Shown here: in pieces, positions 6,476 through 62,609 of the stretch
How the letters are laid out: the number at the start of each line of letters is the position of its first letter
How positions within the stretch are numbered: the stretch's first letter is position 1
IMG/VR virus record: IMGVR_UViG_3300016480_000208
Source: a virus
Taxonomy: Duplodnaviria; Heunggongvirae; Uroviricota; Caudoviricetes; Demerecviridae
Strand: one strand, 5' to 3'
DNA: 64,000 nt
Notes under the pieces: generated by a model
What the model was told of the DNA's origin: nothing
Databases searched by the model: none
The model's input: only the letters and a program-made list of their open reading frames with translations
Position numbers and translations under genes: made by a program

Positions 6476-6754
6476 TCAATTGCCATTTTTCTCTACCTCT
6501 TGCATCAAATTCTCCATACACTTCTTCATAACACTTGCTTTTGGTGGGTTAATCAGCCTTACATTAGTATTGGATATGGCTACCTCAAGTTTTTCTGTTA
6601 ACTCTGCCCCACGAATCTTTTGTTCAGTAGTTAAGTATTTAGAGTCTATAGCGCAAACCTCTAAGTATTTGGTTAATTCCGTACTATCAAACACTTGGGG
6701 GTTAGCTACTAGCAATGGTGACACTAAGGCAAACATCATAATAAACTTTTTCAT
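6476..6754 (-). CDS. Small secreted protein (signal peptide).
   Basis: MKKFIMMFALVSPLLVANPQ N-terminus. Confidence 0.45.
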   Translation of the reverse strand: MKKFIMMFALVSPLLVANPQVFDSTELTKYLEVCAIDSKYLTTEQKIRGAELTEKLEVAISNTNVRLINPPKASVMKKCMENLMQEVEKNGN

Positions 6755-6818
6755 TTGCTATTCTCCTTAATTTATATAGATATTATAGCAAAAAACGGGC
6801 ACGATGGCCCGTCTTATT

Positions 6819-7247
6819 TCACCATTTCCCGCCAGTTAACGGGATATCAAAGATTGTTTCCATCCCAGGGCTTAGGTACAGTTGCTTACAGAATTTCCTA
6901 CCATTATGGTGTTTCTCAAAACACAGGTACGGATTACCCTCTGAGTCTCGCTTAACCACTTCGGTATCATAGCCAAGTTTTCGCATATAGCGGTTTACAG
7001 AGGAGTAGATATGTATAATCTGCTCATGTGAGACATAAAACCTTTTTATTGGGCCTGTATCGCTATCTCGGTAACGACCCATAAAACCTTGCCCCTGGTC
7101 TGGGTTTACAGGGAGTAGGTCGAGTACAATAGCTGCGAATGTTTGTACAGCTTCTTTAGCAATAGCTTCTTCTTTATTAAACATGTTTAATCCTCTTAAT
7201 ATGTAATTTGGTGTCTTCTGTAATGAAGAAGTGGGAAACAAAGCCAT
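6819..7247 (-). CDS. Hypothetical protein.
   Basis: 142-aa ORF, followed by a hairpin terminator at 6790-6815. Confidence 0.45.
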   Translation of the reverse strand: MALFPTSSLQKTPNYILRGLNMFNKEEAIAKEAVQTFAAIVLDLLPVNPDQGQGFMGRYRDSDTGPIKRFYVSHEQIIHIYSSVNRYMRKLGYDTEVVKRDSEGNPYLCFEKHHNGRKFCKQLYLSPGMETIFDIPLTGGKW

Positions 7248-25880: not shown

Positions 25881-26087
25881 TTATGCTTTCTTGATGAACT
25901 GAACAATCTCTGCTGGGGTACGTAAGACGGTGCCGTCTTCCCTGATAAGAGCAGGAGCACTGCGAATGCCGTACCGCCTAGCAACCTCAATATCAGTTTC
26001 AATATTGAAATCAATATTCTTGCTGACTAGCTCGTTATAAAGTGCTACGCAGGCTTTGCAATTTTCAGTCTTAAACAATGTGATCAT
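25881..26087 (-). CDS. Glutaredoxin / NrdH-like redoxin.
   Basis: 68 aa with a CKAC active-site motif. Confidence 0.55.
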   Translation of the reverse strand: MITLFKTENCKACVALYNELVSKNIDFNIETDIEVARRYGIRSAPALIREDGTVLRTPAEIVQFIKKA

Positions 26088-26089
26088 TT

Positions 26090-26738
26090 CTACCTCTCAA
26101 GTGACCTTCTGGACTACTAAATACGTGAATTAAAATGCTAAACTAACTCTGAACCTTTTAACTGCTGAGTTATTTTTGGGGCCTGTTGCCATAAAACAAG
26201 AATCACCCCAGAATAAACCCCACTTAGGTCATATAGTGGTGCCTAGTAAAAGTATGCCTAGCCAGCAGCTTCAAAGTACTGAGTAGGTACTGGTAGGGGC
26301 TGCTAACTTAGGTCATCAACTACTGAGAAGGCCCCCTATAGGGATTTATCCTGCAAGTGGTTTATATATGCTACAGAGCTTTTGTCGACACTGTAGTTGT
26401 TTAGTTGGTCTATTTTTACTGGCAACACCCCTTCTGAGGCTCTAATAGATATAAAGTTATTAAGGAATTGTGGCTCATATTCCCAAATTATAACCTGGTT
26501 CTAGTTTAGCTAGGTTAGCACACTAATGGCCTCCTAGCGCTACTAGGCAGGGAACTACTTCTCCCTTAGCTGCTCCTGCTTCTACATAACGGTTTCCGTA
26601 CTTAGATTTTTAAATCCTTCCAGAATCTCCGTCTGGTAGGCTACTACCCAGTAACTAAGTACACCAAGCAGAATAGTACCGGCACGAAGAGCTAGAGTTT
26701 TAGGGTCTTTTATATCCTGTAAAAGAAGCTCTATCATA
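26090..26738 (-). CDS. Hypothetical protein, ~216 codons with ~17 in-frame TAG codons. Its TGA stop overlaps the ATG of the downstream redoxin gene.
   Basis: Manual translation; no TAA or TGA in frame for ~650 nt. Confidence 0.45.
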
Positions 26739-26851
26739 GCTAGGATAGAGCTTTTTGGTGGCTGCTACGACACGGTAGTTTTCTCCGTAGGACGAACTCT
26801 CTCAATACTTAGTATATGATATAGCGCCACCAAAGTAAATAAGTTTTTAGG

Positions 26852-26882
26852 ATAAAGACGAAAGCCTCGCAATGCGAGGCTC
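26852..26882 (-). terminator. Rho-independent terminator.
   Basis: agcctcgc aat gcgaggct + T-run (minus). Confidence 0.65.
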
Positions 26883-52586: not shown

Positions 52587-53294
52587 TTAAAATGAATTTA
52601 AGTACTGTATAAGTTCGTATAGTTGTTGATCGGTTAATTTGAAAAATTCAGTACCCCCATTGTTAACTGTGGGATTGAACTCGTTATACGCCTAGTACTT
52701 TTTATGCAGCTATTTTTCTAGGTTCCTGGGACTATCAACAGTTATGTGGTGTACATACTGTAAGCTCCCACCAATATTTGCTATCCTATTCTTTATATTA
52801 TTGGTAATACCTATTTTTATAAGGCCTGTATTTTCACACCTAAAAACGTAAAGAATGTTTTGATTTTGCACGGAACACTTTGGACACCCATGTCCTTTTA
52901 AGTGGTGGTTGGGTGTCTGGGAGAATACACCATGCTCTGGACATATGATTAATACCTCAGTACGTCTGTTTACATATACTACAGCAGAATACTGGTAAGT
53001 ATTACCGTGAACCTATCTGAAATCCTGTATACATTGTTTGGTAGTTTTAAGTACATTACCCTAACATTTTGGACACCCAGTACCTTTTAAATGATCATGT
53101 GGTGTCGGGTAGAAATCACCATGAACTCTACAGGTTACGACTACACGGTCTCTAGATTTAACATACTGCGTCTTAGTGTAATCGTAGGTATCACCGTGCT
53201 TTTCCTTGAACTTATTAATATACCACAGATTCTTCACCTACTGGGGCTATTTACTTGATAGCTTTCCAGTTTTTGTTAAATACTGTTCAAACAT
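52587..53294 (-). CDS. T5orf172-domain protein with two GCPKC zinc-ribbon repeats (GIY-YIG-related), 6 in-frame TAG codons.
   Basis: Manual translation MFEQYLTKTGK...HLKGTGCPKC*...HLKGHGCPKC...LIKIGITNNIKNR...; RBS caaggagaaaaagcATG. Confidence 0.45.
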
Positions 53295-53427
53295 GCTTTT
53301 TCTCCTTGATTGCTTTATTATATAATACATTCGGTAGTTTGTCAACCCTCAAAATATTTTACCCCGCGCCTCCAGGGTCATTTCGGAATACGTCAACGGG
53401 TTACGTGTAAACATGTTAATCTAAGTC

Positions 53428-53456
53428 TTGACATTTTGGCTTGTTTTTGATATACT
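53428..53456 (+). promoter_or_regulatory. Consensus sigma70-type promoter for nrdD (TTGACA, 17-bp spacer, extended tgaTATACT).
   Basis: ttgaca 53428-33 and tatact 53451-56, seen in sequence. Confidence 0.7.
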
Positions 53457-53483
53457 GTGTAAATTAAATGACGGAGGTAAAAT

Positions 53484-55511
53484 ATGTTGAAATAGGGTTC
53501 ACTTCAAAAGAGTAATGGCCGCCTTGAGCAGTGGGATGATTTTAAGCTGATTAAGGCAGTTAATAAAGCTGCGGCAAGGGCTGGGGAGACTATTGACTTC
53601 GATAAGCTAATTCCGCTAGTAAATAATAGCACTTCTGTTAGTGAGTTATATCATAAACTAATGATTGCTTTGCAACTATTGGGATACGAAAAAACCGCAG
53701 AAAGCTACTCACAATACCGCTCCTATAAAAAGGAGTTCGGTGGCTTGCTAATGGAAGTCTGGGAAAAGACGCAGAAGGCATTGGCGTATGGTGATAAGAG
53801 TAATGCTAATGTCGATTCGCTAATTATCAGTTCTAAACAATCTTTGGTGCGTGGCTATGTAAGTAAGGAATTGTATAAGCACAACTTCCTGACAGTAGAT
53901 GAGCAAGAAGCTATCCAAGATGGGTATATCTATATCCATGACCTAGACCAGTTGCTTTATCCGCAAATCAACTGCTGCTTGTTTGACGTAGGTGCTGTAA
54001 TGCGTGGTGGCTTTGAAATGGCCAATACTAGGTACACTGAACCTCAGTCACTACGTACTGCCCTACAGCTTATCTCGGATATTGTTCTATGCGCTAGCTC
54101 ACAACAGTTTGGAGGCTTCACAGTACCAGAACTTGACAAAATTCTGGTTCCGTACTACGAGAGGTCACTAAGTAAACATTTAGATGATGCCTATAAATGG
54201 CACATAGAAGAAGCCTATGCCTATGCTGTAGAAAAAACAGAGGACGAACTAAAGCAGGGGTTACAGGCTTTTAGCCTGAAGACTAACACAATTCCGTCTT
54301 CCAGGGGCGACTTTGCTTTTACTACTGTAACCTTCGGGCTATTGGATAACGAAGATACCTATGATGTGCAAAAGAGAATCGCAACAGCTATTCTACGGGA
54401 TAGAATGTCCTACAGCACTCCTCCTGTTTTCCCTAAGCTAGTATATCTATATAATGAGGGGACTAACGACGAGGAACTATTTGATCTAGCTATTGAGTGT
54501 TCGTGCAGGTGTCTATACCCTGACTTCCTGAGTTTGAGCGGGGAAGGTTATGTGGCCGACATGTACCGTAAACATGGCAAAGCAGTCAGTCCAATGGGCT
54601 GTCGTGCATTCCTGTCAGAAGGTTGTGGGTCATTTGTGGGTCGTGCCAACATAGGGGCTGTATCCTTAAATCTCCCGCTAATCTATAAAATGGAAGGAGA
54701 TTTTTACGAGAACCTACTGACGTACTTGAAGATGGTTAGAACTCTACTAGCCAAACGCTACGAGTATGTTGCTAAAGCTCCGTGCTCTACTAACCCACTG
54801 GCCTTTACTCAAGGTGGGCTTATGGGAGGTACTAAGAGCCCCAGTGAACCAATAGGTGATATAGTAAAACAATTCACAGCAAGTTTTGGTATCACTGCAC
54901 TTAATGAGCTGAACATGTTGCATGAGGGGAAACCTCTTCATGAATCAGATCAAACCTTTGTCACAGAAGTAGTAGACTTTATTAATAAGTTTATTATGTC
55001 GGCGAGAGAGGAAGATGGGTATCTATATGCTCTATATGCCACCCCAGCTGAGAGCCTGTGCGGGACACAAGTACAGCAATTCAGGGCAAAGCACGGGGTC
55101 ATCCCAGGAGTCTCTGATAGGGAGTATTTCACAAACAGCTTCCACATGCATGTATCCGCCGAGATCAACCCATTTACCAAGCAGGACTTAGAGTTTAATC
55201 TATTCCACATGGTTAATGGGGGTCATATTCAGTACACGAGGTTAGACACTGATAAACCCAATGTTGTGAAGGGTGTAATTCTACGTGGGATGATGATGGG
55301 GTTCTATTCTGGAGTTAATGCCAATAAGTGTTTCTGCCAGGATTGTGGACACTCAGCAAATAGAGAGTTAATTGAATGTGATAAGTGCGGCAGTACAAAT
55401 ATTGCTGAAATAAACCGTGTATGTGGGTATTTGGGGTATAGCAAAATATCTGGGGACACACGGATGAACTCTTCTAAGATGTAGGAAATTAGGGATAGGA
55501 GAAGTATGTAA
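53484..55511 (+). CDS. nrdD: Anaerobic ribonucleotide reductase NrdD. The true start is ATG at 53484 and codon 4 is TAG. The terminal TAG at 55482 is read through for 9 more codons to TAA.
   Basis: Upstream of the listed M there is an in-frame ATP-cone (MLK*GSLQKSNGRLEQWDDFKLIKAVNKAAARAGE). The C-terminus has a Zn ribbon and the glycyl-radical RVCGY motif. A consensus promoter lies at 53428-56 and an RBS ggaggt. Confidence 0.85.
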
Positions 55512-55836
55512 TGTTGCTATAGAAACAGCCAATCGGATATTTTGAGGATGGTATGATTACCATCCTATTATTTGCGGGAGAAGGTAAGCCCCCCAGGTCT
55601 TATGCCCCTTTATCTAGGGAGGAAGTCTAGAGACTGCTTGACTTCCCTAAAACTACGTCATTGCATTTGTACAACGTAACAGAGACAAACATAGAGGAGG
55701 TGATAGCCTTGCTTCGTTTTATAAAATCTCTTTACAACACACCCATTTTTTGTTATCATGATTATGAACTATCAGAGGGCTCTAGATTGACGTTGGATGC
55801 CCTAGCCAATAAGTTAATTATGACAGGAGCAATAAA

Positions 55837-56316
55837 ATGAAATCAATTGTACTTCTTTTAGGACTAATCTCAGCTTCAGCTCTTGCTAGCCCAGTAGGTT
55901 TAGTTTATTACCCACAACAGCAAGGTGTACAAGCAATCTATGACAACTTCTACGTCGGGTATGCTGGCAAGGGCCGTGATGACACCACAGTAATCGTAAA
56001 AGAAAACTATGGCGTCACACAAGACCAAACCTATATCTCTACTGAACGTGAGTGGTTTGACTACAATGTTCAAGTAGGTATGGTTGGGTATACAGATTAT
56101 AAGGTGTACCCATTCGCAGGTCTTACCTACAGCAATGACCGTAGTAATGAGGTAATCACCATTGACTCCCAGCACTACGCAACCTATGACCATAGTGACC
56201 ACACTGTTGGGTTTGAAGCAGGTTTGCTTTACGAGTTCTACCCACACGCATTGGCGGGTTTGAAATTCTCCACCCAGTATGAGACGGTGCATTTCGGACT
56301 TGGGGTTAAGTTTTAA
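55837..56316 (+). CDS. Secreted 8-strand beta-barrel outer-membrane-protein-like protein (Lom / Ail / OmpX-like).
   Basis: Signal peptide MKSIVLLLGLISASALA, alternating aromatic beta-strands and a C-terminal ...GVKF. A strong hairpin terminator follows. Confidence 0.5.
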   Translation: MKSIVLLLGLISASALASPVGLVYYPQQQGVQAIYDNFYVGYAGKGRDDTTVIVKENYGVTQDQTYISTEREWFDYNVQVGMVGYTDYKVYPFAGLTYSNDRSNEVITIDSQHYATYDHSDHTVGFEAGLLYEFYPHALAGLKFSTQYETVHFGLGVKF

Positions 56317-56358: not shown

Positions 56359-58527
56359 ATGCCTATTTATGTTGGCAACACTGGGGCCTAGAAAATATTA
56401 GGTCTAACAAAAACCTCCCAGGATTAGTGGAACGTAAAGCCAGATACTATATTCCACTCCTCCCTGCCGTATGTAGAAGTAATCGAGCATTATATGCCTG
56501 TTGCGTATAAACACTAGGCTGCACCTTACGACTATCTAGTAAAAGATTATAACCCAGACTACTGGGGGACAGTAACAGTCTACGACTGGTTTAATTACTA
56601 CAACTACGCACCAATAAATGGTAATAAGTATCACAACATTCACTACTATGAGTAGGTATTAACTGATTAGGTGAAATCCTTCTTAAGATACACCAACAAT
56701 TAGTACATACTAATATACCACTTGAGCAATGGCGCCCAAGTAATGATGCCTTAGCATAATTCAGACATAAAGACCACGCACAAAGGGGATTTGCAACATC
56801 TGGACTAGACCGAAGGCAACATATAGACACCAAACTAGGGTTATAGAGCTAGAATGGATCAACTCAAGGCTATTGATAGCCCTTGGGACTTAACGGGGTA
56901 TCAGGACGTATACTGGTTCCAGTACGCTTTTGTGCAGCCTTCCGCAAATGGTGTAGTAACAACACCTAATGGAATAGTGAGTACCCTTGATATTACTGTT
57001 ACTGGTATTACTATTCTTCAGTTAGTGGGGTTAAACCTTGTATAGGCAACCCCAGGAGCAAACCCGCTATCTACCTAGCCCTTGAACCCTTAGCAGCAAG
57101 GGGCTGTTCTTATTTCTAGGGATTCCTTGAATATATAGGGAGTAGAATATAAAAACAAAAAATTCCTACAGGTGCTAACTAACCCGATTACCACAACAGG
57201 CAGTTAGGCGGTAAACGTATCTACTTAGAACTTATAGGTTACAAATCTGTACGCCTCTTCTCCCAGCTTCCAATGGGGGACTAGACTAGACTATCTAGCG
57301 AAATATCGTGACGGGGGCTTCATGAACGTAGGTATAACCTAGGGTTCTTCACAGTACACCTTAATAAATTATCCTCTGGGGCAGGAGTGGTACTCTAATG
57401 TCCCTGCTGTAGGTGCTTGGGGCGTCCTGCCAGGCAATAACATGACAACATATAGTGGGGCTGTACCAGGGTACTGGCCTTATAGTTTTTATGGTGGTGC
57501 GTCAGTTGGGGTTAATTCTTGGAAAGGTAGTATTAGGAAACCCAAAGAGCTTATTTAGCAGTCTTGGTAGCACACCTTTACTAGACTTAGCTAGACCGAT
57601 ACCTGGACTCTAGGTCAGTACTTTAACCAAGGGCTAGCAAATCGCCTTGGTTCTGAGGTTCAATACTTCTAGGGCGTGTAGATTACCTCTCTAAGTAAGT
57701 AGTAGGGTATTGCGTTCGATAGTTCACACCCTAGCATCAATTAGGGTGCCCAATATAAGATGTTCTCGCCAGATTCGCAAATGGTTGCAAGAATTGGTAA
57801 AACATACGCAGCAGCTATCCCACAAGATACCTTTAGCGGGTCACCCTACTATTCTGGGACACGGAATTTCCCATAGTACGAAGATGATATTCTTGTATCA
57901 ATAATTGATTTGGGATAGGAAGAGCAGTAGACCAACAACTTCTTCCTAACATCCTACATTCAAGACCAGGATTTAATTAACCTGTCCTATGCTAATACCT
58001 TGAGGTTTATTGTATCTGGGGGCGTTATCTCATACCAAGAGAATAACTTTAACCCAAGCTACAACATACCTAAGTAGTGCTTATTCTATAGATAGCCGTA
58101 TGATGGGGTTGGTGGGCAATGGTACAAGTCTGTGCAAGCCAATAATGGTTCCCCTGTATGGTTTGGTTATCCAGATTGGTACTACAGCAACTACGACTTA
58201 CCTACAGATATGATAGGATTCCCTTTCCAATCAAACCATATACGTAATAGGTAGGTTTCTGTGGTAAGCTTGCCAGTAGGTGCACAATATATCTTGAAAG
58301 AAGAGCTAAACCCACAGTCAAGCTACGCGTGGAACGGGCCAGACCAAGTTAGGGGGGTACGAAGCTCCATCTAGTATCTTCGTAGAATCTCTTAGTCCAG
58401 AATTGAGGTGCGCCTCAACGTACATAAGACACAGTAGCACAGTGTTTTCTCTAATGGTGGGTATCTTGGTTTCGGTACTTTTGGGTCTAGCGTAGTTCAA
58501 AACTTCTAGATATGCCCTATACTGTAA
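56359..58527 (+). CDS. Long TAG-rich gene: 723 codons with 36 in-frame TAG and no TAA or TGA until the terminal TAA. The Y/N/G/W/T-rich protein may be structural or receptor-binding.
   Basis: Codon-by-codon check against coordinates. The listed ORF 56854..57045 is an in-frame fragment. ATG at 56359. Confidence 0.6.
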
Positions 58528-59942: not shown

Positions 59943-59971
59943 TTGCTATTCACTCTGATTCTTGTTACAAT
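59943..59971 (+). promoter_or_regulatory. Promoter (TTGCTA-17-TACAAT).
   Basis: Seen in sequence. Confidence 0.5.
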
Positions 59972-60276: not shown

Positions 60277-60363
60277 GGTGAATATGAGCAATGTGGTTAG
60301 CTTCAGCGGTCTGTAAAACCGTGCTCTCTGGGCCTGTTGGTTCGATTCCAACATTCACCACCA
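60277..60363 (+). tRNA. tRNA-Tyr (GUA), type II long variable arm.
   Basis: Acceptor ggtgaat/attcacc+a+cca, T-arm gttgg-ttcgatt-ccaac, anticodon loop ctGTAaa. Confidence 0.6.
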
Positions 60364-60369
60364 ATTTCT

Positions 60370-60455
60370 GGAGGTTTTGAGCAGTATGGCGAGCTCAGGT
60401 GGCTGTAACCCACTAACTTCTATGTTTATAGGTTCGAATCCTATAACCTCCACCA
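60370..60455 (+). tRNA. tRNA-Tyr (GUA) second copy, type II.
   Basis: Acceptor ggaggtt/aacctcc, D-stem gagc/gctc, anticodon loop ctGTAac, T-arm atagg-ttcgaat-cctat. Confidence 0.6.
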
Positions 60456-61264: not shown

Positions 61265-61293
61265 TTGCTATCAAGCTGACAACTTGATATAAT
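61265..61293 (+). promoter_or_regulatory. Promoter of the same family (TTGCTA-17-tgaTATAAT) inside the tRNA island.
   Basis: Near-identical to the 62389 module. Confidence 0.65.
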
Positions 61294-62388: not shown

Positions 62389-62417
62389 TTGCTATCAAGG
62401 TATTAACTTGATATAAT
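62389..62417 (+). promoter_or_regulatory. Strong promoter upstream of the suppressor tRNA (TTGCTA, 17-bp spacer, extended tgaTATAAT).
   Basis: ttgcta 62389-94 and tataat 62412-17. The same module is at 61265-93 (before tRNA-Lys UUU) and 59527-55. Confidence 0.7.
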
Positions 62418-62446: not shown

Positions 62447-62521
62447 GGGGCATTAGCTCAATGGGAGAGCGGCGGACTCTAAATTCGCTGGTTAACGGTT
62501 CGAGTCCGTTATGCTCCACCA
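62447..62521 (+). tRNA. Amber-suppressor tRNA, anticodon CUA, on a tRNA-Ala-like body (G3:U70, A73). Predicted to decode TAG as alanine.
   Basis: Full cloverleaf: acceptor ggggcat/atgctcc+A+cca with the G3:U70 wobble; D-arm tagctcaatgggagagc (E. coli tRNA-Ala-like); anticodon arm gcgga-ctCTAaa-ttcgc; variable tggtt; T-arm aacgg-ttcgagt-ccgtt. A promoter lies 30 nt upstream. Confidence 0.85.
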
Positions 62522-62533
62522 AAACTACTTTTC

Positions 62534-62609
62534 GGGGCTATAGTTTACATGGGTAAAACCGCTGCCTTGCAAGCAGCAGAATTCGGTTCAATTCCGAATA
62601 GCTCCACCA
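62534..62609 (+). tRNA. tRNA-Ala (UGC).
   Basis: Acceptor ggggcta/tagctcc (G3:U70), A73; anticodon gctgc-ctTGCaa-gcagc; T-arm ttcgg-ttcaatt-ccgaa. Confidence 0.8.

Follow-up and report, generated by a model that had tools for sequence, protein, structure and literature searches.

UAG is probably read as alanine, and nrdD is intact, in a T5-like Aeromonas phage

Phages with a genetic code other than that of their host have been described among the crAss-like, Lak, and “Agate” phages of gut Bacteroidota or Firmicutes (code 15; Ivanova 2014, Borges 2021/2022, Peters 2022). They combine a standard-code host with in-frame TAG codons in conserved genes and a phage-encoded transfer RNA (tRNA) with the anticodon CUA. 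Treating TAG as sense lifts their coding density from ~70% to ~90%, the earliest genes are TAG-free, and structural and lysis genes (holin) are TAG-rich. According to Borges et al., phages with a non-host code show only TAG to glutamine (Gln) and TGA to tryptophan (Trp) reassignments, because glutaminyl- and tryptophanyl-tRNA synthetase (GlnRS and TrpRS) lend themselves to hijacking, while Shulgina and Eddy state that all known bacterial stop-codon reassignments involve UGA. Recoding also turns up in Demerecviridae, where Cook et al. 2024 (PMC11210395, Table S1) listed TAG recoding with translation table 15 for MG676224, MG676225, and MK318083. Here we analyse IMG/VR record IMGVR_UViG_3300016480_000208, a 64,000-nucleotide (nt) stretch of DNA (hereafter the window) from a T5-like Aeromonas phage of the genus Shenzhenvirus (Demerecviridae; relatives AhP_Mru1 and AhSzw-1), and in particular its gene nrdD for the catalytic subunit of the class III (anaerobic) ribonucleotide reductase, which contains two in-frame TAG codons. 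The standard-code host, the in-frame TAGs, the tRNA(CUA), and the gain in coding density are shared by the window, and the distribution of TAG among gene classes partly resembles that of code 15 phages. We consider it very likely that nrdD is intact in a phage with a non-host code, that UAG is read as alanine (Ala) via the phage's own tRNA(CUA), and that any timing effect is genome-wide.

TAG is a sense codon throughout this phage genome. Coding density increased from 70.5% to 90.0% with TAG as sense, compared with 72.5% for TGA and 81% for TAA. The 79 conserved-frame genes held 195-197 in-frame TAGs (1.2% of codons; ~40% of genes affected), and in conserved genes these aligned with sense codons of homologues. 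None of the 73 gene stops counted was TAG (TAA 55, TGA 18). The base following TAG was T in 23% of cases, similar to the context after GCN codons, whereas T followed 48% of real stops. That Shenzhenvirus is recoded is already on record in the supplementary table of Cook et al. 2024 (PMC11210395), who found in the same genus that TAG does not act as a stop, with coding capacity rising from ~56-59% to 83-86%. The amino acid, the tRNA, and single genes were not examined there, and the table 15 label implies Gln, which is contradicted by the evidence below.

With TAG read as sense, nrdD comprises 675 codons on the plus strand (53484-55511), with TAGs at codon 4 (53493-53495) and codon 667 (55482-55484). 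An original prediction made from the letters of the sequence had placed both codons correctly, along with a sigma-70-type promoter, TTGACA-17-TATACT with a TG before the -10 element (53428-53456; 11 of 12 consensus matches and an extended -10 in a promoter scan), and a GGAGGT Shine-Dalgarno sequence (53473-53478) five nucleotides ahead of ATG 53484. It had counted nine sense codons after the terminal TAG; there are eight (EIRDRRSM), followed by TAA at 55509-55511, this tail (55485-55511) being conserved in relatives as EIKDRRSM, EINDRVSM, and EIKDRVSM. The gene is longer than the open reading frame (ORF) called under code 11 (53661-55484, 607 amino acids), as had been proposed, by 204 nt instead of the 177 nt given, since 27 nt at the 3' end add to 177 nt at the 5' end. 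The prediction had allowed that a stop-free alternative start would make the TAG irrelevant, and no ATG, GTG, or TTG was found in frame between the codon-4 TAG and 53661.

Both nrdD TAGs recur in AhP_Mru1, AhSzw-1, and AhSzq-1. The four genomes sharing them have 79-96% nucleotide identity at the locus (window nrdD shares 95.6% identity with AhP_Mru1 and 82% with AhSzw-1), and the NrdD proteins of AhSzw-1 and AhSzq-1 are identical. AhP_Mru1 carries a third TAG in the middle of the domain. In Akh-2 and TS3, codon 4 is not TAG, the N-proximal TAG is at codon 35, a further one lies in the zinc-site region, and the site of the C-terminal TAG is an ordinary Ala codon (GCN). No sequenced genome of the genus has fewer than two TAGs in nrdD.

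At the protein level, the NRDD catalytic domain (PF13597, 369 bits) covers residues 107-673 and reaches profile position 560 of 562, spanning the terminal TAG, and T4 NrdD matches residues 95-657 (262 bits). The active-site stretches NCCL and PMGCR, the four-cysteine zinc site CQDC...CDKC, and the glycyl-radical motif RVCGYLG align with T4 NrdD, so that catalytic domain, active site, zinc site, and radical motif are shared with T4 NrdD (PDB 1H78 and related) and class III enzymes. In contrast, an ATP-cone is present in the window NrdD and absent from T4 NrdD and from that of the T5-like Yersinia phage phiR2-01, which is 29% identical to the window protein. The cone occupies residues 8-84 (53505-53735, plus strand), mostly upstream of the code-11 start. 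The N-terminal extension had been proposed to be such a domain and was recognised as one by PF03477, which gave 27.7 bits (cut-off 25.8) and covered profile positions 4-88 of 88 when the first 156 residues were scored alone. The score was 24.1 bits in full-length NrdD and 23 bits in the Akh-2 orthologue; KSNG stands where KRDG is usual. The 59 codons upstream of 53661 encode most of this domain and are kept as protein in Akh-2 and TS3 (MIAKRSGKLEHWDDSKFIKAVNKAA...), even though nucleotide similarity to these phages is below the reach of megablast.

Could the TAGs nevertheless be real stops, with NrdD a protein of 607 residues (53661-55484), or the gene decaying, and the flanking similarity a relic? 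The GenBank annotation agrees with this, as nrdD is given as 1824 nt in AhSzw-1 and AhSzq-1 and as three separate coding sequences in AhP_Mru1, and the host uses the standard code. However, 53661 has no Shine-Dalgarno sequence upstream, while 53484 has both promoter and GGAGGT; the upstream codons form most of a domain conserved as protein; TAGs fall in the middle of the catalytic domain in AhP_Mru1, Akh-2, and TS3; and essential genes such as the helicases, primase, NrdA/B, and all structural genes would be destroyed as well. We regard real stops as hardly credible. As the extension is kept as protein in Akh-2 and TS3 and the TAGs have shifted among relatives, the long form is, judged by sequence comparison, the true nrdD, a gene that appears intact and ordinary.

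The amino acid read at TAG was assessed from pairwise genome comparisons using well-aligned flanks, best-frame selection, and an empirical substitution matrix derived from the same alignments. Within the genus, Ala was found at 19-22 of ~75-81 changed TAG sites relative to Akh-2 (varying with the ORF pairs selected), encoded by GCN codons separated from TAG by 2-3 substitutions. The remaining sites held the usual neighbours of Ala (S, G, T, V, C) together with E, K, and Q, which are one-step neighbours of TAG. The log-likelihoods were -236.5 for Ala, -258.6 for serine (Ser), and -282.7 for Gln. TS3 gave 17 of 73 Ala sites (Ala -240.2, Ser -258.5, Gln -277.6). Two standard-code phages pointed the same way, i.e. 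phiR2-01 with Ala at 7 of 20 sites (Ala -49.9, Ser -59.1, Gln outside the top six) and VspSw_1 with 8 of 23 (Ala -55.4, Ser -65.4, Gln -69.1). Ala exceeded the runner-up by 9-22 log-likelihood units in each of these four comparisons. We further searched the DnaB-like helicase of the window (13 TAGs) against 5.8 billion proteins and obtained 21 distant standard-code homologues, giving 273 alignment cells in TAG columns. Ala filled 114 of them (42%; background 5.2%) and Ser 42, and columns 253, 399, and 389 contained Ala in 19, 17, and 14 of the 21 homologues. In NrdB, one TAG aligns with an Ala of the E. coli R2 segment ALEAIRFY. The NrdA sites, which correspond to F, H, R, T, and L in a by-eye comparison with E. 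coli NrdA, are variable and were left out of the assessment.

The tRNA that would read these codons lies at 62447-62521 on the plus strand (GGGGCATTAGCTCAATGGGAGAGCGGCGGACTCTAAATTCGCTGGTTAACGGTTCGAGTCCGTTATGCTCCACCA). Its acceptor end consists of G1-C72, G2-C71, a G3:U70 wobble pair, and G4-C69 with discriminator A73, and it carries G20; these elements match in full the bacterial Ala identity set of Giege and Eriani 2023 (PMC9976931, Table 1), which has no anticodon determinant. Between the copies of the window, AhSzw-1, and Akh-2, the Ala determinants including the G:U wobble are kept, while the pairs 5-68, 6-67, and 7-66 and the T stem change compensatorily. The variable loop is short, which excludes Ser, leucine, and bacterial tyrosine (Tyr) identity. 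The tRNA was found in all six genomes of the genus; beyond the genus, the genes that match it best over the full length belong to Vibrio T5-like phages and are annotated as tRNA-Ala. Its neighbour is an ordinary tRNA-Ala (UGC) with G3:U70 (62534-62609, plus strand). Amber suppressors derived from tRNA-Ala are familiar from the laboratory (E. coli tRNA-Ala(CUA), Abelson/Miller collections), as G3:U70 dictates Ala whatever the anticodon. The tRNA described here has the same tRNA-Ala body with CUA; unlike the laboratory constructs that rescue single nonsense codons, it is natural, phage-encoded, and serves ~1.2% of codons.

A genome-wide reassignment of TAG to Gln (genetic code 15), with Gln at NrdD positions 4 and 667, is what the literature would suggest. 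The three Shenzhenvirus genomes then available were assigned to table 15 by Cook et al. 2024 (PMC11210395), public protein databases show Q at TAG codons, and Borges et al. report no reassignments other than TAG to Gln and TGA to Trp in phages whose code departs from that of the host. The code 15 label, however, comes from gene callers that offer Gln alone for TAG, so that the amino acid is untested by it, and the Q's in the databases are exactly the TAG codons. Moreover, Gln was depleted at the TAG columns of the distant helicase homologues (7 of 273 cells, 2.6%; background 3.5%) and fell behind Ala by 37-51 log-likelihood units within the genus (Akh-2, TS3) and by about 14 relative to VspSw_1. 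Gln identity in bacteria depends on G73, a weak 1-72 pair, and G3-C70, which GlnRS recognises; the A73, G1-C72, and G3:U70 of tRNA(CUA) do not fit. Altogether, Gln is a quite improbable assignment.

Several observations weigh against Ala. The comparison with AhSzw-1, the closest complete genome, yielded 13 changed TAG sites, all one-step neighbours (TGG, CAG, TCG...), with Gln, whose codon CAG is among them, marginally best. Such a pattern is expected from mutation alone and is therefore uninformative on the amino acid, giving no support to Ala either. Ala also makes up only about a quarter to 40% of the residues aligned with TAG, and TAGs often occupy variable sites, including nrdD codon 4, where the alignment with Akh-2 and TS3 is ambiguous. 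Finally, U35 and A73 of the tRNA belong to the lysine and Tyr identity sets too, and some mischarging is possible. Taking both sides together, alignments and tRNA make it highly probable that TAG stands for alanine in this phage.

The original prediction had considered the codon-4 TAG a possible translational switch of nrdD that makes NrdD synthesis strictly suppressor-dependent. The dependence as such stands, since full-length NrdD needs a TAG-decoding tRNA and the window encodes one; any in-frame TAG creates it, however, and nrdD is equal to dozens of other genes in this respect. A dedicated device, in which NrdD would depend on the suppressor and two C-terminal isoforms would arise from the terminal TAG, could draw on the codon-4 and codon-667 TAGs common to four genomes, on the two or more nrdD TAGs throughout the genus, and on termination at codon 4 as a cheap abort of synthesis. 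The four site-sharing genomes are so closely related that shared ancestry may suffice. The two clades of the genus have their N-proximal TAG at different sites (codon 4 or codon 35), and the terminal site is GCN in Akh-2 and TS3; the base context after TAG is like that of sense codons, and nrdD has two TAGs against 44 GCN codons, a share (2 of 46 Ala-equivalent codons; window average 15%) among the lowest of the TAG-containing genes. Across the 79 genes, TAG accounted for 9 of 711 codons at positions 2-10 (1.27%) and 188 of 15993 elsewhere (1.18%). With TAG a sense codon genome-wide and no excess near the start, the switch idea is not supported, and a device specific to nrdD has only a slim chance of being right. 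N-terminal enrichment as a general cheap-abort device was likewise rejected given the equal rates. Codon 4 is also TAG in the ORF starting at 55511 and in ORF 22250 (minus strand), and other genes have TAG at codons 2, 3, 5, 8, 9, or 10.

Considering UAG as an alanine codon, the following course of events may be proposed. The tRNA(CUA) would be made from the early tRNA cluster under its own sigma-70-type promoter, a promoter-like TTGCTA-17-TATAAT with an upstream TG located 30 nt upstream of the gene (62389-62417, plus strand). Host alanyl-tRNA synthetase (AlaRS) would then charge it with alanine, which is to be expected because the tRNA has every bacterial AlaRS element and AlaRS ignores the anticodon. 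UAG would be decoded as Ala, with release factor 1 (RF1) competing for the codon, and the two nrdD TAGs would become alanines (MLK-A-GSL... and ...SSKM-A-EIRDRRSM), restoring the ATP-cone and the C-terminal tail. Full-length NrdD, the products of ~40% of window genes, and the structural proteins of AhSzw-1 might thus appear only after the phage tRNA has accumulated.

The distribution of TAG among genes bears on such a temporal gating. In the complete genome of AhSzw-1, the pre-early genes dmp/A1/A2 contain no TAG, and every clearly identified structural ORF does (tail fibre 84, tape measure 66, Pb3 34, terminase 15, portal 6). In the window, NrdA has 7, NrdB 4, primase 6, two helicases 13 and 16, and the holin 16 TAGs, and DNA polymerase, the 975-residue origin-binding protein, and ligase have none. 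As pre-early genes are TAG-free and many others recoded, any timing effect should be genome-wide and graded by gene class and would not be a device of the nrdD leader. The early replication genes are mixed, the helicases, primase, and NrdA/B/D carrying TAGs and DNA polymerase and origin-binding protein lacking them, and the presence of TAGs in this early class weakens a model of early/late gating. The holin (26084-26872, minus strand; phrog_860, E = 8e-34) is among the most heavily recoded genes (16 TAG versus 14 GCN), and its TAG richness agrees with the published proposal that lysis is delayed by recoding.

The suppressor tRNA mechanism is known and the genus had already been flagged; what differs here is the probable use of Ala and AlaRS, the recoding of replication genes, and the cultivable phage-host pair. 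In the known code 15 phages, Gln is inserted through the tolerance of GlnRS for CUA, while in the window Ala would be inserted through an AlaRS that is blind to the anticodon. TAGs are common in the window's genes for replication and nucleotide metabolism, which Borges et al. found to be largely spared, and the phage is a T5-like siphovirus of a culturable gammaproteobacterial host. A literature search, which most subscription journals lay outside, turned up no description of TAG to Ala in a phage, and recoding is unmentioned in the Aeromonas phage papers that we checked. The stated rule of TAG to Gln and TGA to Trp would accordingly not be followed, and the hijacking of AlaRS appears as an obvious but so far unreported route. 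A wider proposal is that Shenzhenvirus has a natural UAG to Ala code built on a tRNA-Ala body with CUA and an anticodon-blind host AlaRS, the first amber to Ala code in a phage or bacterial system; that the TAG gradient from zero in pre-early genes to heavy use in structural and lysis genes turns tRNA accumulation into a translational timer; and that public translations are wrong at about 1% of residues. For this combination we would give slightly better than even chances. Shenzhenvirus isolates are lytic and already in culture on Aeromonas hydrophila, an easily grown host, which makes code, timing, and RF1 competition testable, unlike in most recoded gut phages, and the compact natural Ala-inserting amber suppressor may serve as a tool. 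For nrdD itself, the outcome is mostly an annotation correction, i.e. an intact gene that gains 204 nt and an ATP-cone.

The consequences for sequence databases are of two kinds. The isolates are translated with code 11 in GenBank, where their genes are fragmented, while recoding-aware pipelines apply code 15, by which every TAG would be mistranslated. In seven close helicase relatives from public collections, the TAG columns contain Q, and A is the sole residue with which it alternates. In ENA ERZ28615351 scaffold_8 (121,920 base pairs, bp), the stored helicase protein departs from the underlying DNA precisely at its 20 TAG codons, all given as Q. Such a replacement of A by Q would affect structure prediction, phylogeny, and mass-spectrometry searches. 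The helicases of uncultured relatives are 69-97% identical and also TAG-recoded, and scaffold_8 contains several HNH homing-endonuclease genes among its replication genes. The tRNA is similarly disguised, being annotated as tRNA-TERM/Sup-CTA, tRNA-Pyl, or tRNA-OTHER or overlaid by a “hypothetical protein” (MK318083, OP820700, PV190393, MG676225). ARAGORN calls it tRNA-Pyl, and Ala identity is given in none of the four GenBank records.

The absence of a NrdG activase downstream, as originally noted, extended to a genome search, since tblastn with manually entered E. coli and T4 NrdG queries gave a best E = 0.45 in the window and the complete AhSzw-1 genome, neither of which contained a credible ORF with a CxxxCxxC motif. 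In phiR2-01, nrdD is likewise without an adjacent nrdG. Aeromonas is a facultative anaerobe, and NrdD is likely activated by the NrdG of the host. The next ORF, originally given as 55509-55841, indeed has two TAGs, at codons 4 and 40, and lacks CxxxCxxC, but starts at ATG 55511, overlapping the nrdD stop (TAATG), and extends to 55840 (109 codons, plus strand). Its product, with a single cysteine, had no Pfam (E up to 1) or PHROG match and is 44% identical to homologues in Akh-2 and TS3 (E about 1e-28). We considered a degenerate NrdG without the cysteine cluster and dismissed it, as Pfam, PHROG, and tblastn revealed no similarity. A hairpin of 9 bp with a T-rich tail (55545-55566, plus strand) lies ~35 nt past the nrdD stop inside this ORF and might act as an attenuator or a partial terminator separating nrdD from the next gene. 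It had raised the suspicion of a spurious ORF, which the protein-level conservation in the genus argues against.

Further observations concern the tRNA cluster. The TTGCTA-17-TA(T/C)AAT module with upstream TG is present in three copies on the plus strand (59943-59971, 61265-61293, and 62389-62417), and a reading by eye suggests that the second and third copies share their flanks (ttgctatcaag...acttgatataat). Tandem duplicate tRNA-Tyr genes are located at 60277-60455. The window tRNA(CUA) is 85% identical to the AhP_Mru1 copy (positions 8-75), compared with 95.6% for nrdD and 99.5% for DNA polymerase, which suggests that the tRNA region may be exchanged or fast-evolving. A blastn search of tRNA(CUA) against E. 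coli genomes gave insignificant matches only (E >= 0.6), and an IMG/VR scan returned AhSzw-1 itself only. In Akh-2 and AhSzw-1, ARAGORN also predicted unusual tRNA-like genes whose anticodon loops are 4-base or 2-base (L006 15226-15298; L008 11597-11670). A scan with the anticodon arm alone recovered an unrelated tRNA(CUA) of 90 nt in IMGVR_UViG_3300033072_000678 (61,947 bp; 6730-6819, minus strand), which has a long variable arm, G73, and a serine-type body. This hints at amber suppressors of further amino acid identities in “code 15” phages.

Two neighbours of nrdD deserve mention. A perfect TTGACA-17-TATAAT promoter (12 of 12) at 53317-53345 on the minus strand points away from nrdD and drives a 252-codon endonuclease-like gene (52587-53345, minus strand; phrog_681/HNH-type matches, six TAGs), forming a divergent pair with the nrdD promoter within ~110 bp. 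On the other side, a 722-codon ORF (56359-58527, plus strand) contains 36 TAGs (54% of its Ala-equivalent codons). It has no PHROG match, its best match in Akh-2 and TS3 is only 26% identical, and it may encode a fast-evolving surface or receptor-binding protein in the early region.

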